In this document: positions 4,417-58,411 of the stretch, in pieces
Numbering within the stretch: the first letter of the stretch is position 1
Layout of the letters: every line of letters begins with the position of its first letter
Made by a program: the position numbers and the translations under genes
DNA from: Bdellovibrionota bacterium
Lineage (GTDB): Bacteria > Bdellovibrionota > UBA2394
DNA: 64,000 bases
Assembly: GCA_044351695.1 (NCBI GenBank)
Contig: JBILFF010000001.1
Location: 66,722-130,721 of the forward strand
Reading direction: 5' to 3'
The notes under the pieces: generated by a model
The model's input: only the letters and a program-made list of their open reading frames with translations
Databases searched by the model: none
What the model was told of the DNA's origin: nothing

Positions 4417-6987
4417 ATGGCAAACCCAACGTCCATCGTCAAAAAGAATGCGGCCGAAAGCGCTCAGCTGCGCCAAAGAATTAGCTCAAGCATTCATATC
4501 CAAGGAGCTCGCGAGAATAATCTTAAAAACCTGAGCCTCTCGATTCCAAAAAATAAGCTGATCGTTATTACTGGTCCGAGTGGTAGTGGTAAGTCGACCC
4601 TTGCTTTTGACACCATCTTTGCCGAGGGTCAGCGTCGATACATCGAAAGCTTATCGGCCTATGCTCGGCAGTTCGTCGAACAACTCAAAAAACCCGAGGT
4701 CGATTCGATCACCGGACTTTGCCCCTCCATTGCCATTCAGCAAAAAACGATTTCTAAAAATCCTCGCTCCACCGTTGGGACCATCACTGAAATTTATGAT
4801 TTCATGCGAGTTCTCTTTAGTCGCGTCGGTGATGCGTTTTGTCCTAAGTGTGATAGTCCCATCGCCTCTCAATCTCTCAGCCAGATTGCTGATCAAATCC
4901 TTCATTTTCAAGAGGGCACAAAAATCAATATTTTGGCAGTGATCGCTCAGCGAAAAAAGGGCGAGTTTGCCAAAGAAATCAATCAGCTCATCCGACAGGG
5001 TCATGTACGCGCTCGAATTGATGGACGAGACTATCAAATTGAACTCGGACAAAAATTAGACAAAAGCAAACCCCACGACTTCTATGTCTATCTCGACCGC
5101 CTCGCCATCAAGGCCTCAGCGAGAGATCGAATTTTGCAGGCTGTTGAGACCGCCGCTCAAATTGGGGAGGGGCGGATTTTGGTGGAGCGCTTTGAAGAGG
5201 GCGATTCGGTTTTATTTTCGCAGAGTCTAAGTTGTGCCAAGTGTGGCTTTAGCCTTCCCGAAATGACGCCCCGACTTTTTTCTTTTAATTCGCCCATCGG
5301 AGCTTGTACGAGCTGTCGTGGCCTGGGCAGCCTTTCTTCTGAAGAAGAGCTTGAGTCGGCGGAAGACGAGATCGACGAAGAAGAGTTTACACACGACACC
5401 CAGACCTGTCCCGATTGCCGGGGCGCGCGACTCAAGCCCGAATCTCTGTCGGTTTTCATTCAAGAGACCAACATTTCAACGATCTCAAAAATGAGTGTTC
5501 AAAAAGCTCTCACGTTTTTCAAAGGCCTAGAATTCACAGGAAATCGAAAGATTATCTCTGAAAAAATCCTACACGAAATCGTAGAGCGACTCCGGTTTTT
5601 AGATCAGGTGGGCCTCGACTATCTGAGTCTCGATCGTTTAGCAGCAAGCCTAAGTGGCGGAGAAGAGCAGCGAGTTCGTCTCGCCACTCAAATGGGAGTA
5701 CAGTTGACTGGTGTGCTCTATATTTTGGATGAGCCGAGCATTGGGCTGCACCAAGTGGACAATCAGAAGCTCATTGAGTCATTAAAAAAACTGAGAGATC
5801 AGGGCAATACCGTGATTGTTGTTGAACACGATGTCGACACCATGCTCGCTTCAGACTGGTTGATCGACCTCGGTCCCGGCGCGGGCCGTCACGGAGGCTC
5901 GATTGTCGAGGCGGGAGAGCCCGGGGCGCTTTCTCAGGGAATCACCGCCAAGTTCCTACAAGGGACCGAACGAATTGACCGCCCTCAAAAGGGCTCTGAG
6001 GGTAGTGGCAAATCGCTTTGGATTCGCGGCGCGAATCTACACAATCTCAAAAATGTGGATGTTGAAATTCCGCTGGGCAAGTTTGTGGCCGTCTCAGGAG
6101 TGTCTGGTAGCGGCAAGTCGAGTTTGATTATGGATGTTCTTGCAACGAGCATCCATGATGGCAAAGCCTATCATTGCAAAAAAATAGAGGGGCTACAGCA
6201 CATCGAAAAAATGATTCGCGTCACTCAAAGCCCGATTGGTCGCTCTCCCCGAAGCAACCCCTCAACTTATGTAGGAATTTTTTCAAGTATTCGCGAGCTC
6301 TTTGCTCAAACTCCCGTAGCGCGCCAGCGTGGCTACAGCATTTCTAGATTTAGCTTTAACACTAAGGGGGGGCGCTGTGAGGAGTGTCAGGGCGCTGGTG
6401 TCAAAAAAATTGAAATGCACTTTTTGCCCAACGTCAGCGTCACCTGCGATCGTTGTTACGGCCGGCGCTATAATTCTCAGACGCTCGAGGTTCTTTTTAA
6501 AGGCAAAAATATTTTTGAAGTTCTGGATATGAGCTTCGAAGAGGCTCTCGGTTTTTTTGAAAACATTTCTTTTCTTCATCGTAAAATGAAGAGCTTTTGC
6601 GATGTGGGCTTAGGTTATTTAAAGCTGGGCCAGCCCGCCACCACACTCTCTGGCGGAGAGGCCCAGCGTGTAAAGCTCGTCAAAGAGCTGGTCAAAACGC
6701 ACAGCGGCCAAAGCCTCTATATTTTGGACGAGCCCACCACCGGCCTGCACTTGGTTGACATTCGACAACTGATTCGCGTTTGTCAGGAATTGGTCAAACT
6801 TGGCAACACCGTAGTGGTGATTGAACATCAACTCGATGTGATTAAGGTGGCCGATCACGTGATTGATCTTGGGCCTGCAGGAGGAGAGGGCGGGGGTGTG
6901 ATCGTCGCTCAAGGAAGCCCTGAAGAAGTGGCTAAGAACTCCAAGTCGGCGACCGGCAGGTTTTTAAAGCAAGTTCTCGCTGCATAA
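4417..6987 (+). CDS. uvrA: Excinuclease ABC subunit A (UvrA), insertion domain absent
   Basis: Two ABC ATPase modules (GPSGSGKST; GVSGSGKSS), signature motifs LSGGE(E/A)QR, zinc-finger CxxC pairs. At 856 aa it is about 90-110 aa shorter than E. coli UvrA. Confidence 0.9.
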
Positions 6988-18226: not shown

Positions 18227-18834
18227 ACTGAAAGACTCTTCTTCTTACGTGAAAGATTTTCAGATCTCAAATGAGATTCGCTCTGACGCTGTGCGTAATT
18301 ATGCACAAGCTCGCCAGATTCTACTAAGAGGGGCCTTTTAGTTTTAATTTTTTCTAATAGTAGTCGTAGTAGGTACCCCACTTCCCTGTGGAAATGTACT
18401 AACATACTGTAATTATTGACTAATTTATTCACAGCGCCTGTGGAGATTTTATACACAATTTTGGATTTTCAAAAATTTATCCACAATTTCTAAAAATCTC
18501 ACACAGAATTCACAGGCTACACACAGGAGTTATGCACAGGTCTGACAATTTCATGCACAGCTGTGCATAAATACCTGTGCATAAGTCTCTTTTTCCTTCA
18601 TTTATGCACAGCTTTGTCTTCTTGCGGCGCGAGAGCCTGTGCATAACTCCTAATAAATTAAAAAAAATGAGTAATTTCAATAGGATATTATCCACAGGCC
18701 TGTGCATAAATCTGTGCATAAAGTGTGCATAACTGCCAAAATCTGTGCATAAATAATGACAAGCTTTGCTGAGACCAGCAAAAGTGACGACTATAAGTCA
18801 CCTTTAAAAATTGAAAGATTAAAAAAAATAGAAC
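18227..18834. promoter_or_regulatory. Chromosomal origin of replication (oriC) with DnaA-box cluster and AT-rich unwinding element
   Basis: At least 14 copies of TTAT(C/G/A)CACA or TGTGCATAA. Starts: 18299, 18425, 18449, 18477, 18530, 18562, 18576, 18602, 18638, 18688, 18701, 18713, 18724, 18744. AT-rich stretch about 18650-18690. Lies between dnaA and dnaN. Confidence 0.85.
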
Positions 18835-21301: not shown

Positions 21302-22963
21302 TTGGACTGGAAGACTTTTTTAGCAATCGCACTAATGATGGTCGTTTACTTTTTGACCTTTCCACCCACACCCCCGCCCGCCCCCGCTCCGGCGGTGAAT
21401 GCAGTAACGCAAAGCGGCGGGCGCGATGCGTTAACTACAACTTCTGCTGCAGCCTCTCGAAAACCTGTTGCCGAGCTTAAAGTAGACCATCAACTCAAGC
21501 AGCTCGCCGATTGGAGATCGGAGCGAAAGTTTTTTGAAACAAAAGATCTTAAGGTCGAGATGAATGGGCTGGGAGAGGTCACAGGGGTTGGGTTTCTGAA
21601 GTATCCTCAAGAGCCCAAAGCGAAAGAAGTGGTGGGCCGAGAGTTCGCCGCTGCAAAAAATTTGAATCGAAGCACTTTAAGAGTGGGAGCTGAGGAAGTT
21701 GTTTGGACAAAACAGGAGTGGGGTTCAAACGAGCTTAGGCTCTTTGCTCAGAGAGAGGGTGTAGAGATTCAAAGGCGTGTTTGGCTTGAAGAGGGCGACT
21801 ACTTTTTGAGAATTAGCGACACTGTTCAAAATAACAGCGCTCAAAGCTTAGAGGCGGCGGTTGAATTAAGCCTTGGAGAGTCGATTGATCCGAAAAAGCA
21901 AAGCGGATTTTGGATGAGGCTCTTCAAGCCCCAAACGGACTTTCAAAAGTCGGCCTGGGTAAAAAAAGACTCTCTCGACTATCAGATGTTTGACCAATCG
22001 GGTCGCCTGGAGGTCGAGGAGGCAGCCGCCCTAAGCTGGTCGGGTTTTGCAGATAAGTATTTTCTTTATGCAGCCTTTCCCAAAAACATGTCTTTTGAAA
22101 GTCTGGAGGCTGTACGCGAGGGCAATACCGTTCAACAGAAGATGAAGTGGTCGTCTAAGCAAAGCCCCCCAGGCGAGAGGCTGAGCTTAGATTATGCGAT
22201 CTATATGGGCCCAAAAAAAATCAGCGATCTTGAAAAGCTAAGCCCCAGCCTGAGTCTCTCAATTGAATACGGCAACTGGGTGGGACCTATTGCCCGCTTT
22301 CTTTTGAGTGTTCTTATGTTCTTTCAGGGACTGGTGAGTAATTTTGGCGTCGCTATTTTCTTGCTAACCCTGATTGTGAAGGTCGTTCTCTTTCCTTTGT
22401 CTTATAAAGCGGCTGTCTCAATGCGAAAGCTCTCCCTCATTCAACCCAAGATGATTGAGATTCGAGAAAAGTATAAAAAAGACCCCCATCGAATGAACTC
22501 AGAGATGATGAGTCTTTATAAAACAGAGAAAGTGAACCCTGTGGGTGGTTGCTTGCCCATGCTTCTTCAGATGCCGATCTTTTTTGCGCTCTATAGAGTG
22601 TTCTTTGCTTCTATTGAAATGAGGCACGCTCCTTTTGTGGGTTGGATCAACGATCTCTCTCACTACGACCCCTTCTTTGTTCTTCCGGTGAGCATGACAA
22701 TTCTCATGGTTCTTCAGCAGAAGCTCACTCCTATGCCTGAAACGGGCCAGGATTCAGAGGCTGTGAGGATACAAAAAGCCATGTTTAAGTGGATGCCCTG
22801 GTTTTTTGGCGCCATCATGCTTTTTCTGCCTGCCGGACTCTCCTTTTATATGTTTGTGAATGCTGGAATTTCGATTGCCCAGCAGCTTTTCATCAACAAA
22901 CGGATGGATAAGCTCTATCCACGAAATACAGCTCCCAAGCTTCAAGTTGTGAATGGTGGATAA
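21302..22963 (+). CDS. yidC: Membrane protein insertase YidC
   Basis: N-terminal TM, large periplasmic domain, C-terminal 5-TM core with conserved …MYKTEKVNPVGGCLPMLLQMPIFFALY…. Confidence 0.9.
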   Translation: MDWKTFLAIALMMVVYFLTFPPTPPPAPAPAVNAVTQSGGRDALTTTSAAASRKPVAELKVDHQLKQLADWRSERKFFETKDLKVEMNGLGEVTGVGFLKYPQEPKAKEVVGREFAAAKNLNRSTLRVGAEEVVWTKQEWGSNELRLFAQREGVEIQRRVWLEEGDYFLRISDTVQNNSAQSLEAAVELSLGESIDPKKQSGFWMRLFKPQTDFQKSAWVKKDSLDYQMFDQSGRLEVEEAAALSWSGFADKYFLYAAFPKNMSFESLEAVREGNTVQQKMKWSSKQSPPGERLSLDYAIYMGPKKISDLEKLSPSLSLSIEYGNWVGPIARFLLSVLMFFQGLVSNFGVAIFLLTLIVKVVLFPLSYKAAVSMRKLSLIQPKMIEIREKYKKDPHRMNSEMMSLYKTEKVNPVGGCLPMLLQMPIFFALYRVFFASIEMRHAPFVGWINDLSHYDPFFVLPVSMTILMVLQQKLTPMPETGQDSEAVRIQKAMFKWMPWFFGAIMLFLPAGLSFYMFVNAGISIAQQLFINKRMDKLYPRNTAPKLQVVNGG

Positions 22964-24275
22964 TCCTGAAACCATTGTTGCATTATCGACCCCCCCGGGC
23001 CGCTCGGCCCTTGCGATAGTTCGGGTCTCGGGGCCAGAGGCCTTTGCGGTGATTCAGGGGATGACTTCGATGCAGGATCTTCCGAAGGCCCGCTTTGCCG
23101 CCCTAAGGCACTTGAGGCGCAAGGATGGGGAGCTTCTGGACGAGTCCTTGGTGCTTTTGTTTCCGGGACCTGGGTCTTATACTGGCGAGGACTTGGTAGA
23201 AATTCATTGTCACGGAAACCCTCTCATTTATGAGGCTATTCTTGCTGAGATTGTTTCACGTGGAACGCGCCTAGCCCGACCCGGAGAGTTTAGTTTGCGG
23301 GCGGCCCTGAACCAGAAGCTCAGCCTTCACGAGCTTGAGGGCTTAGATTTGATACTGAACGGTCAGAGTGAGGCGGTGGTTCGGATGGGCCTCAGGGCAA
23401 AAATGGGAGATTTCTCTCAAAGAGCCCAAGAATTAAAAGAAAAAATACTCAATTTAAGTGCAGAGCTTGAGGCCCGACTCGATTTTCTTGAAGAAGATCT
23501 CGATGATGGCCTAAAAAGCAGGATTCAAGGCGAGCTTTTGGGGGTGGAGCGATCTCTCTCGGAGTGGTTAGCAAGCTATCAGAGATCAAGGCGCTTTATT
23601 GCTCGCCAATCGGCTTGCTTAGTGGGCAGGCCTAATGTGGGAAAGTCCTCTCTTTTTAATGCTCTGATTGGCGAAGAAAGGGCCTTGGTGCACGAGTTGG
23701 CGGGCACCACTCGAGACTACCTTGAGGTAGAGCTTCGCCTGGGCGATCGATATATTCTTTTATTCGATACCGCCGGTCTAAGAGAAGCACAGGACCCGAT
23801 CGAACAGATGGGAATTGAAAAGAGCAAAGAAGCCATTGCTCGATCGGATACGGTGATTTGGGTGTCTGATACAGGCGAGGAGCCGCCCGAGGCCCTGACT
23901 CTTGGGCTCGGAGATCGTCGCCTTATTAGGGTTCTATCGAAATCAGAAGGAGACAGGCCGGCTGCCCAGGGATTTTTGTCTGTATCTGCTAAAGAAGGTG
24001 TAGGGCTTGAGGCTCTAAAAGCGGCTATTTTGGGCCCCAAAGAGGATTCAATCGGAGATCTTTCTTATATTTTATCAGATCGAGAGGCAAAGGTCTTGGA
24101 GCGAGCTATGCAAATTGGCGCCCAAATGCGTGAGGGTTTAAGTTCTGGAGAGCCCCTTGAGTTGGGAGCAGAGAGGCTTAGGGCTTTGGCCGCCCAGCTA
24201 GAGGACTTGATTGGCAAAAAAGCACACGAAGACGTTTTGAAAAGAATTCTGGGGCGGTTCTGTATCGGAAAGTGA
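22953..24275 (+). CDS. mnmE: tRNA modification GTPase MnmE
   Basis: G domain GRPNVGKSSLFNAL, DTAGLRE, and C-terminal CIGK motif. Confidence 0.9.
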   Translation: MVDNPETIVALSTPPGRSALAIVRVSGPEAFAVIQGMTSMQDLPKARFAALRHLRRKDGELLDESLVLLFPGPGSYTGEDLVEIHCHGNPLIYEAILAEIVSRGTRLARPGEFSLRAALNQKLSLHELEGLDLILNGQSEAVVRMGLRAKMGDFSQRAQELKEKILNLSAELEARLDFLEEDLDDGLKSRIQGELLGVERSLSEWLASYQRSRRFIARQSACLVGRPNVGKSSLFNALIGEERALVHELAGTTRDYLEVELRLGDRYILLFDTAGLREAQDPIEQMGIEKSKEAIARSDTVIWVSDTGEEPPEALTLGLGDRRLIRVLSKSEGDRPAAQGFLSVSAKEGVGLEALKAAILGPKEDSIGDLSYILSDREAKVLERAMQIGAQMREGLSSGEPLELGAERLRALAAQLEDLIGKKAHEDVLKRILGRFCIGK

Positions 24276-24279
24276 GTAT

Positions 24280-24325
24280 TGTTTCACATGAAACATTTGA
24301 TCCATTCAATGTTTCATGTGAAACA
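24280..24325. promoter_or_regulatory. Pair of 16-bp sites (TGTTTCA-NN-TGAAACA) that are exact reverse complements of each other, separated by 14 bp, in the 61-bp mnmE-mnmG intergenic region
   Basis: Site 1 at 24280-24295 is tgtttcacatgaaaca. Site 2 at 24310-24325 is tgtttcatgtgaaaca, its exact reverse complement. Each site is itself a 7-2-7 palindrome. Confidence 0.5.
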
Positions 24326-24336
24326 GTGGCGGTTTA

Positions 24337-26229
24337 ATGGTGGATTTTGATGTCATTGTCGTTGGCTCAGGACATGCGGGAGTAGAAGCAGCCCTGGCCG
24401 CTGCTCGCATGGGGGCAAAGACTCTTTGTATGACCATGAGCGCCGACCAGATTGGCACCATGTCTTGTAATCCAGCGATAGGCGGATTAGGAAAATCGCA
24501 TTTGGCCAAAGAAATCGACCTTCTTGGTGGGTGGATGTGTAGGGCCGCGGACTTCTCGGCGATGCAATACCGGGTTTTGAACGAAAAAAAAGGCGCGGCC
24601 GTTCGCTCAACCCGGGTACAAACGGATAGACATCAGTATCGAGAGCATTTGAAGTGGGTTTTAGAGACTCAGCCGAATCTGCGACTTATGCAGGCCCAGG
24701 TTGAGAGCTTAATTTTAAGCTCGGGAAGGGTGTCGGGCGTTCAGACCACATTGGGAATTCGCGTTTCTGCTTCAAAAGTTATTATCACCACCGGAACCTT
24801 TATGAACGGGCGGGCTCATGTAGGAAAGCAAAGCTTTTCTTCGGGCCGAGCGGGTGAGCCGCCCTCTTTGGGTTTATCCGAGTTTTTGAAAGCACAGGGG
24901 GTTAGGCTGGGCAGATTCAAAACAGGAACTGTTCCGCGCGTGGATGGTCGAAGCATTGATTTTTCAAAGCTAGAGGCCCAGGGCTCGCATGAATTTGCTC
25001 GTCCCATGTCGTATTTCACTGTCGAGAAGCGAAAAGACCTCGAGCCTGCCTTTATTGGGCACACTAACCCGCGCACGCACGAGATTATTCGAGGCGATCT
25101 CGATAAATCGCCGCTCTACTCGGGCATTATCGAGAGTCGAGGCCCCCGCTATTGTCCGTCTGTAGAGGACAAGATAGTTCGTTTTGCAGACAAAGAGAGA
25201 CATCAGATCTTTGTGGAGCGAGAGGGCCGCAAAACCAATGAGCATTATGTGGGCGGGCTAAGCACGAGTCTTCCTTACGAAACTCAATTGGAGTTTCTTC
25301 GAAGCATCGTGGGCTTGGAGCGAGTTGAGATTGTGCGTCCGGGATACGCGATTGAGTACGATTATATAGACGCCACCCAACTAAACAGTCGGCTAGAAAT
25401 GAAAGAAATGCCGGGGCTCTACTTTGCGGGCCAGGTGAACGGGACTTCGGGTTATGAAGAAGCTGCGGCCCAGGGGATTGTGGCGGGGATCAATGCTGCA
25501 GCATCGAGTTTGGGCCACGAAGCTTTAGAGCTTGATCGATCAGAGTCTTATATTGGGATTCTTATCGACGACCTTACTCGCATCGTGGGCACCGAACCCT
25601 ATCGAATGATGACCTCACGAGCTGAACATCGCCTGGCTTTGCGTGAAGACAATGTTGACGAGCGCTTAATCTCTCACTCAAAGCGGCTACGCTTGCTGAG
25701 CGATCGGGAGCTTCAGAGGCTTGAGAGCAATTTAAAAAAGAAGGCCCAAATAAAAGAAGAGCTCGAATCTAAAAAGCTAAAACCAGACGCCGCAACTCAA
25801 GAGCTTTTTCGGTTATTAGGAGAGGGCGAGTTGAAAAGTCAGATAAGTCTTTTAGATTTTTCAAGAAGGCCGAACATTTCGGCTCAAGATTTGATGAGGC
25901 TCTTTTGTTTTGAATATCCTTCGGATGTGTTTGAGACGGTAATTACAGATATTAAATATGAGGGCTACATCAAGCAGGCCCACTCTCAACTGCGGCAGCT
26001 CGAAAAAATGAGAAGCTTAAAAATTCCCGAAGGGCTTCGTTATGAGTTTATCAAGGGCTTAAGTCGAGAGGCGATCGATCGGCTTAATCAATCTAAGCCC
26101 AAGGATCTGGCAGAGGCTTCTCGACTAGAAGGTGTGAGCTCTGCCGCGCTCACTGTTCTTTCTATTTTTCTTTCAAAGAGAGAATCGAGAAGTTCTTATA
26201 AAGATTCTTGCGCTGCAGAATCAGCATAA
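24337..26229 (+). CDS. mnmG: tRNA uridine 5-carboxymethylaminomethyl modification enzyme MnmG (GidA)
   Basis: FAD-binding N-terminus VVGSGHAGVEAALAAARMG and the conserved GidA body. 630 aa. Confidence 0.95.
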   Translation: MVDFDVIVVGSGHAGVEAALAAARMGAKTLCMTMSADQIGTMSCNPAIGGLGKSHLAKEIDLLGGWMCRAADFSAMQYRVLNEKKGAAVRSTRVQTDRHQYREHLKWVLETQPNLRLMQAQVESLILSSGRVSGVQTTLGIRVSASKVIITTGTFMNGRAHVGKQSFSSGRAGEPPSLGLSEFLKAQGVRLGRFKTGTVPRVDGRSIDFSKLEAQGSHEFARPMSYFTVEKRKDLEPAFIGHTNPRTHEIIRGDLDKSPLYSGIIESRGPRYCPSVEDKIVRFADKERHQIFVEREGRKTNEHYVGGLSTSLPYETQLEFLRSIVGLERVEIVRPGYAIEYDYIDATQLNSRLEMKEMPGLYFAGQVNGTSGYEEAAAQGIVAGINAAASSLGHEALELDRSESYIGILIDDLTRIVGTEPYRMMTSRAEHRLALREDNVDERLISHSKRLRLLSDRELQRLESNLKKKAQIKEELESKKLKPDAATQELFRLLGEGELKSQISLLDFSRRPNISAQDLMRLFCFEYPSDVFETVITDIKYEGYIKQAHSQLRQLEKMRSLKIPEGLRYEFIKGLSREAIDRLNQSKPKDLAEASRLEGVSSAALTVLSIFLSKRESRSSYKDSCAAESA

Positions 26230-26256
26230 GTTTTAATAGTACTGGGAGGGCTGCAA

Positions 26257-27486
26257 GTGGAGACAGATGCGCCGATGATAAGCGGACAGTTGAAGATTAT
26301 TTCTGTGGCGAACCAAAAAGGTGGCGTGGGCAAAACAACATCTTCAGTAAACTTTGCAGCTTCTCTTGCCGCGGCGGGCCATAAAACTCTTTTGATCGAT
26401 TTAGATCCTCAGGGCAATGCGAGTTCGGGTTTGGGGGTTGATCGTTATGCGTCTTCGACCATTTACGATGTCTTGATTGGCCGCACCGAGCTAACGCAAA
26501 GCATTCAAAAAAGTGTTTTGGACGACCTGTACGTTATTCCTGCTAATCAGAACTTAATTGGGGCTGAGGTAGAGTTAATTAATGCGATTTCTCGGGAGCG
26601 CAAGCTTAAGACCGCGCTCAAGAAGCTTCCCGAGGATTTTAGGTTCGTTGTTTTTGATTGTCCGCCCAGTTTGGGTCTTTTGACGATCAACGCTTTCACG
26701 GCAAGTCACAGCCTATTGATTCCAATTCAGTGCGAGTACTATGCGATGGAGGGTTTGGGGCAGTTGCTGAACACCTTTCAGATTGTGAAGGAAGACCTAA
26801 ATCAAGACCTGCGTATCGAAGGGATTGTTTTAACGATGTATGACCCCCGCAACAAATTGACGCACGAGGTCGTAAAAGAAATGCGAACGCATTTTCCAAA
26901 TGAGCTTTACGAGACCCATGTGCCCAGGAACGTCAAGCTTTCGGAGGCCCCCAGTTTTGGTAAGCCAGTCTTATTATATGATTGGGATTCGAAGGGCTGT
27001 CAGGCCTACTTGCAGTTGGCGGGAGAGTTTTTAAAAAGAAACTCTCTTCCGGAGCCAAACTGGAAGCTGATTCAGAAAAAATATCTGCCCCTTGTGGAAC
27101 AAGAGGCGGTTGAGGTGGTTGCCGCAGAGCAGGCGCCGACTGAGATGATTGCCCTAGAGCAGGCACCGACTGAGATGATTGCCTTAGAGCAGGCACCGGG
27201 TGAGCATGAGCAAATGGACCTCGCTCCGGTTGAGCTAGAACTCTCGAGCTTAGATCTATCTGGCGCGGCGCCCAATCTTTCTGAGGCGGGCGAGGATGGC
27301 CGGGCCTCTTTTATAACGCAGCAAGTCGAGTTTTTTGATAAGAGCCTTGACTTAAATGAAACGAAGGAGCCTGAATTGGTCGAATTGTCGTCTCAGGCCA
27401 ACGAAGGTCAGGTTTTAGAGCCCATAGACCAGGCTCCAGCCCTTCAGATAACAGAAGAGCTGTCGGCTCAAGAATTAAGGAACTAG
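26257..27486 (+). CDS. parA: Chromosome partitioning ATPase ParA/Soj with an approximately 140-aa acidic C-terminal extension containing tandem repeats
   Basis: Deviant Walker A NQKGGVGKTT. The ParA fold spans about 270 aa. It is followed by a Glu/Ala/Pro-rich tail (AEQAPTEMIALEQAPTEMIALEQAPGEHEQ…). Confidence 0.85.
   Translation: METDAPMISGQLKIISVANQKGGVGKTTSSVNFAASLAAAGHKTLLIDLDPQGNASSGLGVDRYASSTIYDVLIGRTELTQSIQKSVLDDLYVIPANQNLIGAEVELINAISRERKLKTALKKLPEDFRFVVFDCPPSLGLLTINAFTASHSLLIPIQCEYYAMEGLGQLLNTFQIVKEDLNQDLRIEGIVLTMYDPRNKLTHEVVKEMRTHFPNELYETHVPRNVKLSEAPSFGKPVLLYDWDSKGCQAYLQLAGEFLKRNSLPEPNWKLIQKKYLPLVEQEAVEVVAAEQAPTEMIALEQAPTEMIALEQAPGEHEQMDLAPVELELSSLDLSGAAPNLSEAGEDGRASFITQQVEFFDKSLDLNETKEPELVELSSQANEGQVLEPIDQAPALQITEELSAQELRN
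27122..27203 (+). repeat. 30-nt tandem repeat, about 2.6 copies, inside the parA 3' extension
   Basis: gagcaggc(g/a)ccgactgagatgattgcc(c/t)tag repeated at 27125, 27155 and partially at 27185. It encodes EQAPTEMIAL repeats. Confidence 0.8.
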
Positions 27487-27504: not shown

Positions 27505-28425
27505 ATGGAAACAACACAGGGGACAGGAAATCAGCAAGCAAATCGGAGCGTTTTGGGTCGAGGTATTGGCAGTCTTTTGCCCGAGACCAATAAGCGCGGC
27601 TATATTTTGTGTGCCGTAGGAGAGCTCTATCCAAACCCCGCGCAACCGCGGAAACATTTTGATCCTGCCAAGCTCGATGAGCTCGCACAAAGTATTCGCG
27701 AAAAGGGTGTCCTACAGCCGATTTTGGCCAAAAAGACTGAGCGCGGGTACATGATTATTGCGGGAGAGCGTCGCTGGAGAGCTTCTCAAATCGCGGGCAA
27801 GAAAGAGGTGCCCGTCATTATTAAAGAACTTTCTGATCATGAAATCCTAGAGCTGGCGCTCATCGAGAATATTCAGAGAGAGGATCTTAACCCGATTGAG
27901 GAGGCTGAATCCTATCAGCGTCTCATTATTGATCTTGGTCTCACTCAGGATGAAATCTCCAAGCGGGTCGGAAAGGATCGATCCACGATTGCCAACGCGC
28001 TTCGGCTTCTAAAGCTTTCTAAAGAGGTTCGTGAGAAAATTTCGTCTGGGGAGCTCAGTGTTGGCCATGCGCGCTGTCTGATTACGCTGGAAGATAAGAA
28101 GGTTCAGAATCAAATCATGGAGGAGATTCTGACGAAGCAGTATTCGGTGCGCCAGGTCGAAGCCCTGGTAAAGCGGTTCCGCGGAGCCGGCGCTTCGGAC
28201 GAGCCCGGCGCCGAGGGCGCAGAAACCAGCATCGAAACCGAGCTGGCCGGGTATGGAGAAATCACGAATTCCTTGCGCAAGCTCTTGGACACCAAAGTGG
28301 AGATCCGGTCTCAAAAGGCGGGACGGGGCCAGCTCGTTCTTCATTTTTTGACGCCTGCCGACTTAAACAAGATTCTTGGTAGACTAGGCTATGGCAGCGA
28401 TCGGCAAGAAGATGCAACAGCCTGA
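27505..28425 (+). CDS. parB: Chromosome partitioning protein ParB/Spo0J
   Basis: ParB box …IIAGERRWRAS… and helix-turn-helix …STIANALRLLKL…. Confidence 0.9.
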   Translation: METTQGTGNQQANRSVLGRGIGSLLPETNKRGYILCAVGELYPNPAQPRKHFDPAKLDELAQSIREKGVLQPILAKKTERGYMIIAGERRWRASQIAGKKEVPVIIKELSDHEILELALIENIQREDLNPIEEAESYQRLIIDLGLTQDEISKRVGKDRSTIANALRLLKLSKEVREKISSGELSVGHARCLITLEDKKVQNQIMEEILTKQYSVRQVEALVKRFRGAGASDEPGAEGAETSIETELAGYGEITNSLRKLLDTKVEIRSQKAGRGQLVLHFLTPADLNKILGRLGYGSDRQEDATA

Positions 28426-28785
28426 AACAATCACCCTCCTCGATAAGGGATGTGAGTTTCAAGGAAAGCTTTCCTTTGAGGGTGTGGTTCGTATTGATGG
28501 GGGCTTTGAGGGAGAAATTTTTTCTCAAGACCACCTCATTATTGGAGAAGGTGCTCGGGTTGAGGCCACAATCCATGTGGGCCGACTTGAGGTTGGCGGC
28601 TTTTTTAAGGGGACTCTACGGGCCGCATTGAGGGGCATATTCAGGCAAAAGATATTGAGGCTCATCATGGAGCTGTGATCGATGGCCAGCTGGACATGAG
28701 TGCGCTCCGGCAGACGAGTATAGACGCTCAGTCGATGAACTCTGCCCTCAGTGTGCTGACCGCGGAAGTCCGTTCTCACAGCTAA
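28391..28785 (+). pseudogene. Bactofilin (DUF583) gene interrupted by a -1 frameshift at a GGGG run near 28609-28612. This is either a sequencing error or a genuinely disrupted gene
   Basis: Frame 1 encodes …GEGARVEATIHVGRLEVGGFFKG. The frame offset by one nucleotide continues DSTGRIEGHIQAKDIEAHHGAVIDGQLDM… to the stop at 28783-28785. Both halves are bactofilin beta-helix repeats. A fifth G would restore one ORF of about 130 aa. Confidence 0.6.
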
Positions 28786-35197: not shown

Positions 35198-36712
35198 TTG
35201 GTGGGCCGAATATTTCGCGGGCTTCTTTTTTTTCTAGCGAGCCTTGTGATGGTGGAATTTGGAGAGGGCCTGAGGGCTTCGGCCAGACACGCACTCCTTT
35301 TTTCTCCTTCGGGTCAGCGGATTAACGAATCGCCAGCGCCAGCCAATTCGCGCGCTATTTTTCATCGATTGAGTACTGCGTGCGACTTGGATCCACAAAG
35401 AATCTGCATTAACTATCAGTTACAACTCCCCTCAAACATTCAAGAGGTTGAGGTTCTTACTCAGGCCGCAAGCAGCGTCCAGCTATGGACCACATCATCT
35501 GGAGCTCATTTGGGATCGCAGTATCAAGGCTTGTTTGCCGGCTCGGGCCTTCCTTTTGAACGAGACGGGGCTGGGTCTATTTTGCTGGACGAGTTTGGAA
35601 ATCAAAAACTTTCGGGTCCTATTCTGATCTCACTCGCACCGCCACCAGAACTGATTGAGGATTTTGCTGCAAACGAAGTGGCTCGAAACATCTACTACGT
35701 TCTGCCGGATCTCCAAAATTCTCAAGGGGAGCTGCTGTGGGCAGGAATTTACATTAATCCAAAGTTTAATCCCTTGATGGATTGCCAAGCGCCGGCCGCC
35801 AGCTGCTTTTCTATGACGGGCTTTGGTAGCTTTTCTTTGCGGTCTATCATCATTTATCAGTTGGGCTTAATCTTGGGAATCGCAGCTTCCGCTCTTCCAG
35901 ACTCTGTCATGTTTCCAGTGCAAAATCCGAGCTGGCCCAAGAACTACTCTAATCTCAGAGAGCATGAAAAAAATCTCGTGAGAAAGATTTATCAGGGCCC
36001 AGAACCAGAAGATCTCGGAAGCTTGAGGGGCCGGGTCACAAGCGGCGATGGGGGCGCGGGGCGCCCCGGGGCCAGCGTTTTTGCGTTGGCCGCAGATCGG
36101 ATGGATGCCGTGATTCGCACCCAAAGCTTAGATTTGTTTTCAGCATCTACGACGACCAGGCAAGGTGGCGAGTTCGTCTTTGAGGCGCTGATTCCTGGAG
36201 AGTATCTCATTTTTGTAGAATCTCCATTGGCACGGGGGCTTTCAAAAAATAAATTTGATGAATGGGTGAAGCGGTTTGGCGCGGATGAGTATTTTGCGCC
36301 CGAGCTCTATGATGGTCGAGATCGAGAGTCAAACAATGAGCCCGCAGATTTTTCTCCGCAGCTTTTTCGCGTGGCCGCGCGGGTCGTGGTGACAGCCGGA
36401 GAAGAGACCTCGGGTGTTCATGTCATTACCCAGCGAAGTCAATCTGGGTCGGCTCAATTAGTGGCCGGAGGCTCCACCAACGAAATTCTTTCGGATTACG
36501 AATTCAAAGACTTGAAGAATTTGATTCGGGATGAAATTCGATCTCAGCTCGATCGGCCCGAGAAGGCCAAGGGATCCTCAGGTTGTGCCGTCGGCACGCG
36601 GCCAGAAAAGTCTGGCTGGGGTTTTATTTTTGTTTTTTGGATTGCACTATGCCTGTGGTTTCGATTCCGATGGGGTCAGAAAGCAAAATTACACCCTGCT
36701 GGATGCCGGTGA
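35198..36712 (+). CDS. Secreted protein carrying a degenerate (catalytically dead) metzincin-like motif, a CarboxypepD_reg-like beta-sandwich, and a C-terminal TM plus basic tail
   Basis: Signal peptide. IIYQLGLILGI…SVMFP resembles HExxHxxGxxH plus Met-turn with all His/Glu replaced. …GRVTSGDG…GASVFALAADRMD…GEFVFEALIPGEYLIFVESPLARG is CarbopepD_reg-like. Ends …GSSGCAVGTRPEKSGWGFIFVFWIALCLWFRFRWGQK. Confidence 0.55.
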   Translation: MVGRIFRGLLFFLASLVMVEFGEGLRASARHALLFSPSGQRINESPAPANSRAIFHRLSTACDLDPQRICINYQLQLPSNIQEVEVLTQAASSVQLWTTSSGAHLGSQYQGLFAGSGLPFERDGAGSILLDEFGNQKLSGPILISLAPPPELIEDFAANEVARNIYYVLPDLQNSQGELLWAGIYINPKFNPLMDCQAPAASCFSMTGFGSFSLRSIIIYQLGLILGIAASALPDSVMFPVQNPSWPKNYSNLREHEKNLVRKIYQGPEPEDLGSLRGRVTSGDGGAGRPGASVFALAADRMDAVIRTQSLDLFSASTTTRQGGEFVFEALIPGEYLIFVESPLARGLSKNKFDEWVKRFGADEYFAPELYDGRDRESNNEPADFSPQLFRVAARVVVTAGEETSGVHVITQRSQSGSAQLVAGGSTNEILSDYEFKDLKNLIRDEIRSQLDRPEKAKGSSGCAVGTRPEKSGWGFIFVFWIALCLWFRFRWGQKAKLHPAGCR

Positions 36713-54392: not shown

Positions 54393-56244
54393 AATTTCTT
54401 ATCAGGCTTACAGCGATCTTGAGCAGCTTCCGACGGGTACAGGATGTTATATTTTTAAGAGCCAAGAAGGCGGAGTTGTTCTTTATGTGGGTAAGGCTAA
54501 AAACCTTCGGGCCCGGGTCCGACAATATTTTATTCATGAAGAAGGGGATGGCCGTGCTTTTTCTAGGATCATCGGAGAGCGTACTCGCTTTATTGAGTTT
54601 ATTCTCGTTCAGACCGAGCAAGACGCTTTTGTCTTAGAGAACGAGCTCATCAAAAAACACCACCCTCTCTACAATATTCACTTAAAGGACGACAAAAGAT
54701 ATCTCAGCCTTCGTTTGGATCTGCAGCACGAGTGGCCCCGAGTCGATGTGGTGAGAAAAATTAAAAAAGACGGAGCGGTCTACTTTGGACCGTTTTCGTC
54801 AGCCACTCGTTTGCGTGAAACACTGAATACGATGCAGCAGGTCTTTCCGCTTCGTTCATGTCCTGACTCAAAGCTCTATAACCGGTCTCGGCCCTGTATC
54901 GAATACGATATCAAACGATGTGTGGCCCCGTGTGTAGGCAAGGTGACCCGAGAAGACTACCGCGCGCTGGTGGACCAAGCTGTAAAATTTTTAAAAGGAG
55001 ACAGTGAGCCGCTGATGACTGAGCTAGAGAGTCAGATGAATGAGGCCGCACACTCAGAGAAGTACGAAGAAGCCGCCCTGCTTCGAGATCGCTTAAAAGC
55101 CATCGCTGAAATCACGCAATCCAAGCAACAGGTGATATCGCAAGATCAATATCAAAAAGGATTCGATTGTGATGCGCTCGGCCTCGCGCGAGACGAGGAG
55201 CGGTTGATTGTTGTTCTCCTGTTTGTGAGGAGCGGGGTGATCTTGGATCAGCGAAGCTTTGATATCCGACATAAAAATCTCGAAGAAGCGGAGCTCCTCG
55301 CGCAGTTCATTGATCGCTACTACAACAGTGAGGTCTATGTGCCTCATGAGGTTTTGGTTCGGCGAACTTTGGACTCGGATCAAGAGCTTTTGCCGGTGCG
55401 ACTGGTGATTCCTCGGGCCGAGGAGAAGAAGAACTTTTTACAGATCGCCGAAAAAAATGCCGAAGCTCAGCTGACGGCGCGGCGCGAGAGAAAAGAAAAG
55501 GTTTCGGCCATCTTGGATGCTCTTCAAAAGCACTTGGGCCTGAGCAAGCGCCCCACGACCATGGACTGTCTGGATATTTCGCACCACCAGGGAGAAGAGG
55601 TGGTGGCTTCGGTCGTGCGATTTCGCGATGGCGTGCCGGAGAAGGATTTTTATCGTCGAATTCGGCTCGAGGTGCAGCGGGTAGATGATTTTGCCTCCAT
55701 GAGAGAGGTGATCCGAAGGCGATACAAGAAACAAGAGGATCTGCCTGATCTCGTGGTGATTGATGGGGGCCGAGGACAACTAAGCTCTGCGGAGGAGGCC
55801 TTTCGCGAGAATGGATTTTTAGAGCATATCGATTTGGTTTCGCTGGCCAAGGCGCGCGAGACCCATGAGCCCATCGACCCCTTTAATCCGATGAATCGAG
55901 AGCGCATTTTTAAGTTGGGGCAAAAAAATCCAATTTTGTTAGCAAAAGATTCGTCAGAAGAATTGCTTTTGAGCTTTTTGCGAGATGAGGCCCATCGTTT
56001 TGCGATCACTTATCATCGCAAGCGGCGTTTAGATTCGATTTCGACCTCTATTTTAGATCAGATTCCGGGAATGAGCTCGAAACAGAAAATTAGACTTTTA
56101 AAAGAGTTTGGCTCGGTGAAGGGGATACGGGGAGCCAGCGATTTTGATTTGCTTAAACTGGTGAAGCCAAGACTGCTCGAAAAAATTCGAGAACATCTTT
56201 CGGCGGAGCTCGACGTCGAAGAGGATTTTTCAGAAGAAGAATAA
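54385..56244 (+). CDS. uvrC: Excinuclease ABC subunit C
   Basis: GIY-YIG N-terminus (GCYIFKS…LYVGKAKNLRARV), UVR domain, Endo V-like domain and HhH. Confidence 0.95.
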   Translation: MPEISYQAYSDLEQLPTGTGCYIFKSQEGGVVLYVGKAKNLRARVRQYFIHEEGDGRAFSRIIGERTRFIEFILVQTEQDAFVLENELIKKHHPLYNIHLKDDKRYLSLRLDLQHEWPRVDVVRKIKKDGAVYFGPFSSATRLRETLNTMQQVFPLRSCPDSKLYNRSRPCIEYDIKRCVAPCVGKVTREDYRALVDQAVKFLKGDSEPLMTELESQMNEAAHSEKYEEAALLRDRLKAIAEITQSKQQVISQDQYQKGFDCDALGLARDEERLIVVLLFVRSGVILDQRSFDIRHKNLEEAELLAQFIDRYYNSEVYVPHEVLVRRTLDSDQELLPVRLVIPRAEEKKNFLQIAEKNAEAQLTARRERKEKVSAILDALQKHLGLSKRPTTMDCLDISHHQGEEVVASVVRFRDGVPEKDFYRRIRLEVQRVDDFASMREVIRRRYKKQEDLPDLVVIDGGRGQLSSAEEAFRENGFLEHIDLVSLAKARETHEPIDPFNPMNRERIFKLGQKNPILLAKDSSEELLLSFLRDEAHRFAITYHRKRRLDSISTSILDQIPGMSSKQKIRLLKEFGSVKGIRGASDFDLLKLVKPRLLEKIREHLSAELDVEEDFSEEE

Positions 56245-56314
56245 GCGCCGAAACCACTTCATGACGGAGGTTTCTTCGGGCCGAGTGTAAACGGAGGCTG
56301 GCGCAAAGGCCTCT

Positions 56315-58411
56315 GTGGGCCCGGGCTGCGCAGGATGCATTTTGCCTGTGCGAAACTTTCCGTTTCTTGTTTTGTTTTTGGGTGTCGTGGCGGGGGCCAG
56401 TTTTTTTTGGATGGATGAGCGGTGGTCGATGGGTCTTGTCTTGGGGCTCAGCTTGCTTTTCGGCCGCTCCTTTTATTTTTTCTTAGGACTTGTGGGCGGC
56501 GGGTTTTCTCAGTTTTTGAGTGCTGTATTTTTGCCCGTGCAAAGCACTCCTCCCGATTGGGAGAGCTACTTGACTCAGCAAAGCATTCGAGTAAGTGAGC
56601 GCGGGCCGTATGGTTCCTTGGTCGAGTGGCGCGGCGGCATGTGGAGGAGCTCGTTGCATTTAGCTCGCGGGCAAGAATGCATCGCTGACTTTTCTATTCA
56701 TCCCAGGACGACTGAGGAGGGCTTGGCTTTTCCTTCGGTAGAGCGGCTCAGGAGGGCTCGCGAAGATGAGGGCCGGCTAAAGATTTACACGAGCAATTGT
56801 GAGGTCGAAAAATCGAGTTCTGAGGGGGGAGTGGCCCATCGCCTTTTTAGGGCCCTTTGGTTGGGAGATCAGTCGGCTCTGGCACAGTCGTGGTGGAGAG
56901 ATCTCAATCACTTGAGCATGAGTCATTTGATCGTTGTCTCGGGCTCTCACTTGGCCATGATTGTGGGTTTTTGGGTTTTTTCGTTGAGTTGGGTGGTTCG
57001 TCGCTTTGCGCTTCCTGCACATTATCTTTTTTTTCGCGCCAGTGTAGCGACCGTGGTTTTGGGTCTATGCTTTCTTTGGCCGCCTGAAGTTCCGATTCTG
57101 CGCGCAGCCGCGGCTTATCTCTCGCGAAGTTTCTTGGGCTATTGGTGGCCAGCGGTGTTTCGGTTTCGACTGAGTGAGTGGACGATGATGGTGGCGATCT
57201 TGTTTGCGTTGATCTTTCCAGCCGAGCTACACACTAAATCTTTTCTGTTTAGTTTTGGGGCGGCCTGGTCTTTAGCGGCAGCCCACGAGTCTCGCGCAAC
57301 TCAATCTTGGATGGTTTTGCTGGTACCCAGCTTTTTTGTCGCCGGACTGGCTTCTTTTTGGGCGCTCGATCAAAGCGGTCTCAGCGTTCTGTTGAGTCTG
57401 CCGATGATTGCTTTTTTCGGGTTCATTCTTATGCCTGGTGTGGCGGTGGCAGAGATTTTTGGGGGCCTCTCAGCGATAGAGCGGATCGCCCAGACTTTTA
57501 TTGAAAGCACTCATCAGATCGCAGAGTTCTCGCGCAGCTCGGTGATACAGCCCTCATCACCTGCCTGGCTAGGGCTGGGGTTATTTTTCTTGATGGTGGT
57601 GGTTTTGTGCAAAGAGCGGGCGCCTCTTTTTAAAAAGCTGTGTTTGCTCATCCCTCTTTATGGAGCCCTGTTTATTCCCGTGCATTTACGACCCACGGCT
57701 AACCAACTAGAGATGATTGATGTGGGGCAGGGTGATGGCTTTATTCTGAGTCTTGATGGTCGTCGAATGGTGATCGATGGAGGAGATCGCCCGCACCTGG
57801 TCGACAGCCTTCTGCGCTCGGGCAGGGCTCATGTGGATCTCTGGGTGCTTTCACATTTTGATCAGGACCACTCCAAAGCGGTTCTTGAAAATCTTCATCG
57901 CCTTTCGATTGAGCAAATTTGGGTCCCACGTCTTGATCGATCGAAGCTATCAAAATCTTTGCGATCAAGGGCCGTGATCGAGCTGGGCTCGTCTTGGCGC
58001 GAATGGACTTTGGGGGACTGGCGAGTGGTGGGTGTTGTGCCGACGCCGGGTCGAAGAGGTAAGATAAGAAATAAAAACAGTCTTTGTTTGTTTGTTTTTA
58101 AAAAACAGCGCTTGATCGCTCTTTTCTTGGGCGATCTGGATGCTCAAGGGGAGCGCCGACTCATGGAGCTCTGGAATTTTAGTGACGCGCGGCTTCCGAT
58201 TCTTAAGGTGGCGCATCATGGATCCAGGTCGAGTTCATCCCAAGAGCTATTAAGTCAAAGCCGGCCTCAGTCGGCACTGGTGTCGTCGGGTCGAGTCAAT
58301 CAGTATGGTCACCCGCATTATGACGTGATCGATAGATTGGAACGCACCGGCTCTTTTATTATGTCCACCTCAGCCCAAGGCTCGGTGATTTTAGATCTGG
58401 ACCGAATATAA
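56315..58411 (+). CDS. comEC: DNA internalization competence protein ComEC/Rec2
   Basis: Polytopic competence domain plus C-terminal metallo-beta-lactamase domain (…IDVGQGDGFIL…, …HFDQDH…, …KVAHHGS…). Confidence 0.8.
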   Translation: MGPGCAGCILPVRNFPFLVLFLGVVAGASFFWMDERWSMGLVLGLSLLFGRSFYFFLGLVGGGFSQFLSAVFLPVQSTPPDWESYLTQQSIRVSERGPYGSLVEWRGGMWRSSLHLARGQECIADFSIHPRTTEEGLAFPSVERLRRAREDEGRLKIYTSNCEVEKSSSEGGVAHRLFRALWLGDQSALAQSWWRDLNHLSMSHLIVVSGSHLAMIVGFWVFSLSWVVRRFALPAHYLFFRASVATVVLGLCFLWPPEVPILRAAAAYLSRSFLGYWWPAVFRFRLSEWTMMVAILFALIFPAELHTKSFLFSFGAAWSLAAAHESRATQSWMVLLVPSFFVAGLASFWALDQSGLSVLLSLPMIAFFGFILMPGVAVAEIFGGLSAIERIAQTFIESTHQIAEFSRSSVIQPSSPAWLGLGLFFLMVVVLCKERAPLFKKLCLLIPLYGALFIPVHLRPTANQLEMIDVGQGDGFILSLDGRRMVIDGGDRPHLVDSLLRSGRAHVDLWVLSHFDQDHSKAVLENLHRLSIEQIWVPRLDRSKLSKSLRSRAVIELGSSWREWTLGDWRVVGVVPTPGRRGKIRNKNSLCLFVFKKQRLIALFLGDLDAQGERRLMELWNFSDARLPILKVAHHGSRSSSSQELLSQSRPQSALVSSGRVNQYGHPHYDVIDRLERTGSFIMSTSAQGSVILDLDRI

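Follow-up and report, generated by a model that had tools for sequence, protein, structure and literature searches.

What role do two mutually complementary palindromes play in the short gap between mnmE and mnmG on the chromosome of an uncultured Bdellovibrionota bacterium? In the 64-kb stretch of DNA analyzed here (64,000 nt, hereafter the window), the mnmE stop codon ends at position 24275 and the mnmG ATG stands at 24337, and the 61 bp between them hold TGTTTCACATGAAACA at 24280-24295 and TGTTTCATGTGAAACA at 24310-24325, two 16-bp palindromes that are exact reverse complements of each other and whose centers lie 30 bp apart. A preliminary description, made by reading the letters alone, had reported precisely this geometry, together with a potential RNA stem ending 11 nt before the mnmG AUG, and both reports agree with the sequence; the complementarity is in fact longer than first noted, with 18-nt arms (24280-24297 and 24308-24325) separated by 10 nt. 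The half-sites TGTTTCA and TGAAACA are perfect in both palindromes, and the pattern TGTTTCANNTGAAACA, with up to two mismatches allowed, is matched four times in the window against 0.41 expected. The source annotation places the mnmG start slightly further downstream, at GTG 24340, for a protein of 629 aa. Two interpretations had been put forward for the pair, as operators of a dimeric regulator or as an RNA element governing processing, attenuation, or translation, and the motif had been held against the boxes of LexA, Fur, CRP/FNR, HrcA, and NrdR.

That comparison omitted parS, the site to which the partition protein ParB binds. The chromosomal parS consensus is TGTTNCACGTGAAACA, and the great majority of bacterial chromosomes carry such sites close to oriC (PMC7022226). 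Each of the two intergenic palindromes agrees with this consensus at 15 of 16 positions, with the single mismatch falling in the central CG, which is replaced by CA in the mnmE-proximal site and by TG in the mnmG-proximal one. Natural functional parS sites tolerate one or two mismatches. When at most one mismatch to the consensus is allowed, five strand-matches occur at three places in the window, as opposed to 0.02 expected, and none of 100 shuffles reaches this count. The third place lies within the mnmE coding sequence at 23252-23267, where TGTTTCACGTGGAACG (on the minus strand CGTTCCACGTGAAACA) carries one mismatch and retains the canonical CACGTG core, such that the three sites together span 1.07 kb. 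Relaxing the threshold to two mismatches still returns just the same three places in the 64 kb; at three mismatches two extra sites appear, at 35910 and 41151, where the total chance expectation has risen to 1.26. A genome-wide pattern search had been suggested as a way to define a regulon, and its execution over the window speaks against one: the sole other site within two mismatches is the one 1 kb away inside mnmE, with no regulon-like spread. These figures also bear on a further alternative, namely that the pair is a chance palindrome or a copy of a dispersed, REP- or MITE-like repeat with no specific function. Such a reading would account for the palindromic shape and for that only, whereas the chance expectation amounts to 0.02 per window, copies of the motif are not scattered over the window, and lineages with MnmG proteins 57-72% identical keep it at the orthologous position. 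The window statistics and the seven-lineage alignment described below together refute it, and we regard its likelihood as negligible.

The setting of the three sites is that of an origin region. Pfam assignments give the order recF, dnaN, and dnaA on the minus strand, followed by rnpA, yidD, yidC, mnmE, mnmG, a parA-like gene, and parB on the plus strand. The mnmE gene (22953-24275, plus strand; TrmE_N, MnmE_helical, and MMR_HSR1 domains) carries the third site in its coding sequence, while mnmG (24337-26229, plus strand; GIDA, E = 9e-155) begins immediately after the pair. The lowest point of the cumulative GC skew lies near 20 kb, and DnaA-box-like 9-mers number 26 in the window versus 8.6 expected, 14 of them packed into about 450 bp between the Pfam-identified dnaN and dnaA genes (18299-18752). 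From the skew minimum and the DnaA-box cluster, the window probably spans the replication origin, with 18299-18752 as the probable oriC and the parS pair 5.5 kb from the cluster. The 9-mers of the cluster mostly follow the variant TTATGCACA and not TTATCCACA; at 18701-18752 several of them crowd together. Farther along, the intergenic distances are 27 bp between mnmG and parA and 18 bp between parA and parB; no rsmG (gidB) gene intervenes between mnmG and parA (26229-26257), and several distant mnmG loci have a wider gap at this point.

The genes for a cognate partition system stand alongside. About 3.2 kb downstream of the pair, as part of a parA-parB locus, parB (27505-28425, plus strand) encodes a protein with ParB_N, HTH_ParB, and ParB_C domains and a GERRWRA motif, the presumed cognate parS-binding CTPase clamp. 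Its strong matches to solved structures include the Thermus Spo0J entry 1vz0 (E = 5.6e-63), and it also matches Myxococcus ParB, Bacillus subtilis Spo0J, Helicobacter pylori 4umk, and Caulobacter 6t1f, the last two of which we take to be entries that include parS complexes. Its helix-turn-helix region aligns without gaps to parS-binding ParB proteins through the GHAR motif. Two specificity residues, R173 and G201, are conserved in parS-specific ParB proteins and different in Noc (PMC7383237), and the window's ParB has Arg and Gly at the corresponding positions, their equivalence being set by alignment on motifs. By its domains and motifs the protein is thus predicted to be a canonical CTPase-type ParB. 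The upstream parA-like gene (26257-27486, plus strand) encodes an ATPase of 409 aa matching the AAA_31, CbiA, MipZ, and ParA families over residues 13-255, while its C-terminal 149 aa (27037-27486) match no Pfam family. A typical chromosomal ParA measures roughly 250-260 aa, and the ParA proteins of the relatives are likewise long, at 338-389 aa.

How deeply the arrangement is conserved was assessed in related metagenomic contigs. The nearest MnmG proteins are 69% (full length), 65%, and then about 60% identical to that of the window, with a short metagenome fragment (L098) at 72%, and few of the MnmG relatives carry names, these being Bacteriovoracaceae, 'Deltaproteobacteria,' and Bradymonadales metagenome-assembled genomes. 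The contigs of the relatives keep the same order from dnaA through parB, the bactofilin gene, and the atp operon. We compared the lineages L084, L085, L087, L098, L210, and L212, with L083 in part, and aligned the intergenic region for seven lineages (alignment A1). All three sites recur at matching places in eight lineages (MnmG 57-72% identical), and the relatives' loci of 14-17 kb contain the same three sites only. Phylogenetic footprinting of the mnmE-mnmG region, another check proposed at the outset, thereby gives a clear result: both 16-mers stand immediately upstream of mnmG in the relatives, with a center spacing of 30-31 bp, and in the alignment they vary only in the central dinucleotide and, once, at an N position, whereas the spacer and the flanks have diverged beyond alignment. 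The spacer between the sites keeps its length (14-15 nt) and not its sequence. The sole arm change is a T-to-C substitution in site 2 of L084, which falls on an N position of the consensus and has no compensating change in site 1. In L083, the closest relative (GCA_964433805.1), a run of N at 5693-5727 has its end within the first of the two parS sites, and the locus has no mnmE gene call; the run is consistent with assembly trouble at a long inverted repeat.

The site inside mnmE offers a separate view of what is being conserved, because its letters also have to spell protein. In each of the eight lineages it falls on the same codons (I/L-V-S-R-G/E-T; I-V-S-R-G-T in the window). The third positions of its GTT, TCA, and CGT codons are fixed except in L087, against variable codons on either side. 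The L087 version of the site, CACATGAAACA, replaces Arg by His and Gly by Glu in the protein and leaves the DNA within one mismatch of the consensus. Since synonymous positions are fixed and, in L087, the protein changes while the site stays, the pattern points to selection for the DNA sequence, not for the protein, at this place.

Taken together, the consensus match, the origin-proximal position, the cognate genes close by, and the deep conservation argue for identifying the two palindromes as chromosomal parS sites which, with the third site 1 kb upstream in mnmE, would constitute a centromere-like ParABS loading region, a reading to which we assign a probability of about 0.93 on the sequence evidence. 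The resemblance to chromosomal parS as known from the B. subtilis Spo0J sites and from most phyla is extensive, comprising the 16-bp palindrome with perfect arms, the origin-proximal location, the adjacency to mnmG (gidA) and parAB, the clustering of copies with one of them intracoding, and the encoding of ParB and ParA alongside; the difference is the CA or TG center, in place of CG, of both intergenic sites throughout the clade. The element is consequently of a well-known kind, and what is new about it is limited to the conserved noncanonical center and the fixed spacing of the doublet.

The parS assignment also reshapes the operator proposal. The sites stand directly upstream of mnmG-parA-parB, whose internal gaps are merely those 27 and 18 bp, and in some species ParB reportedly affects how genes in the vicinity of parS are expressed (PMC7022226), so that ParB at the pair could conceivably repress or tune these three genes, or else an unrelated dimeric regulator with a regulon of its own could bind there. 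Set against this, no sigma-70-like promoter was found in 23800-24800, no further copy of the motif lies upstream of other genes in the 64 kb, the mnmE-internal copy being the only one, and the match to parS makes an unrelated regulator unnecessary. We therefore consider a role as transcriptional operators improbable in either version. What stands of the earlier suggestion is its form, as these do look like sites for a dimeric DNA-binding protein; what gives way is the identity of the players, with the protein being in all likelihood ParB and the sites parS, not the operators of a regulon.

A similar distinction applies to the proposed RNA element, according to which the two sites would fold into a hairpin on an mnmE-mnmG read-through transcript and serve as a processing site, stabilizer, attenuator, or translational control for mnmG and parAB. 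As a calculation the hairpin with its 16-bp stem is strong (-33.5 kcal/mol, z = -5.45), and so it is when folded as single-stranded DNA (-18.4 kcal/mol, z = -7.1); the gap contains no promoter-like site, which makes read-through likely, and complementarity is perfect in five of the seven aligned lineages, with the swapped centers of L210 (TG..CA) preserving the pairing. Neighboring palindromic parS sites are, however, complementary to each other by construction, and their pairing is no independent evidence: both the hairpin and the mutual complementarity arise because two near-palindromic sites stand side by side. Of the 16 stem pairs, 13 are invariant, the two double-sided changes both come from L210 alone, and the three unpaired cells of the alignment are two central mismatches in L098 (CA..CA) and a single uncompensated A-C in L084. 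The covariation is not significant, 33 of 500 shuffles of the seven-lineage alignment reaching the observed score. A terminator scan found no U-tract at the hairpin, and an Rfam search returned no family, with only a chance-level hit to mir-999 (E = 0.68), whose 18.1 bits compare with a gathering score of 58. In the relatives, purine-rich stretches resembling ribosome-binding sites lie 3' of the stem, outside it. An RNA reading, moreover, leaves the third site inside mnmE and the match of the arms to parS without explanation. The stem thus holds as a prediction of folding, whereas a part for it in processing, attenuation, or translational control is unsupported by covariation, U-tract, or Rfam, and we deem it highly improbable. 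The hairpin and the 'unknown operator' alike can be understood as by-products of a textbook element, for which neither a new regulator nor a new RNA is needed.

If the intergenic palindromes are parS sites, their centers deserve a closer look. In all eight sampled lineages the center of each intergenic site is CA or TG and never CG. Five lineages have CA..TG, an arrangement with which L083, its first site cut by the assembly gap, is also consistent; L210 has TG..CA and L098 has CA..CA. The mnmE-internal site, on the other hand, keeps CG, as part of the Arg codon CGT, in seven of eight lineages. Because a change from CA to TG requires two substitutions and passes through CG or TA, the center must have changed within the clade, and it did so without leaving CG in any sampled lineage. 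In the literature searched we found no mention of parS 14- to 16-mers centered on CA or TG.

Three explanations for these centers or their order were considered and set aside. Methylation of ACGT to m5C followed by deamination (CACGTG to CATGTG or CACATG) finds no support in tetranucleotide counts: ACGT is low in the window (observed-to-expected ratio 0.72) but not in the relatives (0.93), and ACAT and ATGT are not enriched. The tetranucleotide CATG, which both variants create, is neither over- nor underrepresented (1.05), which lends no support to its being a methylation or restriction target. Finally, inversion between the arms does not produce the TG..CA order of L210, as inverting a perfect palindrome flips the spacer only and leaves the arm centers as they were.

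Bdellovibrio bacteriovorus provides a close functional reference. Its two parS sites near oriC, upstream of parAB, load ParB in a CTP-dependent manner (Kaljevic et al. 2023, PMC10547168), and the layout described here resembles that pair in having two sites near oriC and upstream of parAB; it differs in that the two B. bacteriovorus sites are identical, TGTTCCACGTGGAACA, whereas the sites of the window combine TGTTTCA and TGAAACA arms with a non-CG center. The B. bacteriovorus ParB distinguishes TGTTCCACGTGGAACA from TGTTTCACGTGAAACA, parS variants with just two differing positions (PMC10547168), and in light of this discrimination a functional meaning of small parS variants is conceivable. 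By extension, the non-CG center and the fixed 30-31-bp doublet might be functional rather than tolerated drift, and might represent a specialized parS variant or doublet architecture of this clade, a notion that we hold to be doubtful at present. Were it correct, such a special parS might tune the affinity or the clamp loading of ParB, or might place centromere assembly under a context-dependent control akin to that in B. bacteriovorus, where the chromosomal context of parS imposes a cell-cycle block on ParB accumulation (PMC10547168). The clade-wide CA or TG center, together with a three-site layout that includes a site in mnmE codons, offers a natural test case for the share of the center in ParB recognition and loading.

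To place the doublet in a broader context, we turned to mnmG loci and parS pairs beyond the clade. In a set of 80 mnmG loci among the matches listed (many phyla, 1.45 Mb, MnmG identity at most 52%), 62 parS-like sites with no more than one mismatch were found against 0.12 expected; 32 of these 62, in the same 80 loci among the matches listed, are no more than 200 bp away from one end or the other of mnmG, and in 57 of the 62, again among the matches listed, the center is CG. The placement of parS beside mnmG thus appears, on the sequences sampled, to be general outside the clade. Close parS pairs are abundant in metagenomes. A metagenome scan for two perfect-arm parS sites 12-17 nt apart, from which 80 loci were fetched among the matches listed, located parA or parB in the fetched DNA of 47 of the 80 (among the matches listed), and a CG center in 67 of 85 close pairs (likewise among the matches listed). 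At least four CA..TG pairs came to light in this survey, one of them (L117) lying between mnmE and mnmG next to an MnmG of 42% identity, and CA..CA pairs occur between mnmE and mnmG in the distant lineages L110 and L122 among the matches listed. The parS doublets found elsewhere in the metagenome survey share with the present one the perfect arms, the 12-17-nt spacers, and the adjoining parA, parB, or mnmG; among the matches listed they are mostly CG/CG and vary in spacing between lineages, in contrast to the fixed 30-31 bp of this clade.

Drawing on established ParB behavior, we infer how the sites would operate. Dimers of the 27505-28425 product would recognize each 16-bp palindrome via their helix-turn-helix domains (PMC7022226, PMC10547168), and would then bind CTP, close into a clamp, and slide onto the flanking DNA. 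The ParA ATPase would move the partition complex that forms in this way next to oriC, and the complex would help to organize the origin region. For annotation, the value of the sites is that they likely show where the centromere and the origin region lie in an uncultured and poorly sampled lineage.

Two further observations concern neighboring genes. Clade-wide (L083, L085, L087, L210, and L212), the gene immediately after parB, and overlapping it, encodes a bactofilin (28391-28678 in the window), and a link between bactofilin and ParAB is known in Myxococcus. With 95 aa, the bactofilin open reading frame of the window aligns to positions 1-65 of a 98-position profile, the relatives' proteins measuring 133-148 aa; it may be truncated or frameshifted. 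Lastly, the AT skew is strongly negative (-0.26) at 56001-58000, over an open reading frame (56315-58411) for a ComEC-like competence protein that includes a metallo-beta-lactamase domain, and the codons used for a membrane protein are probably what this skew reflects.
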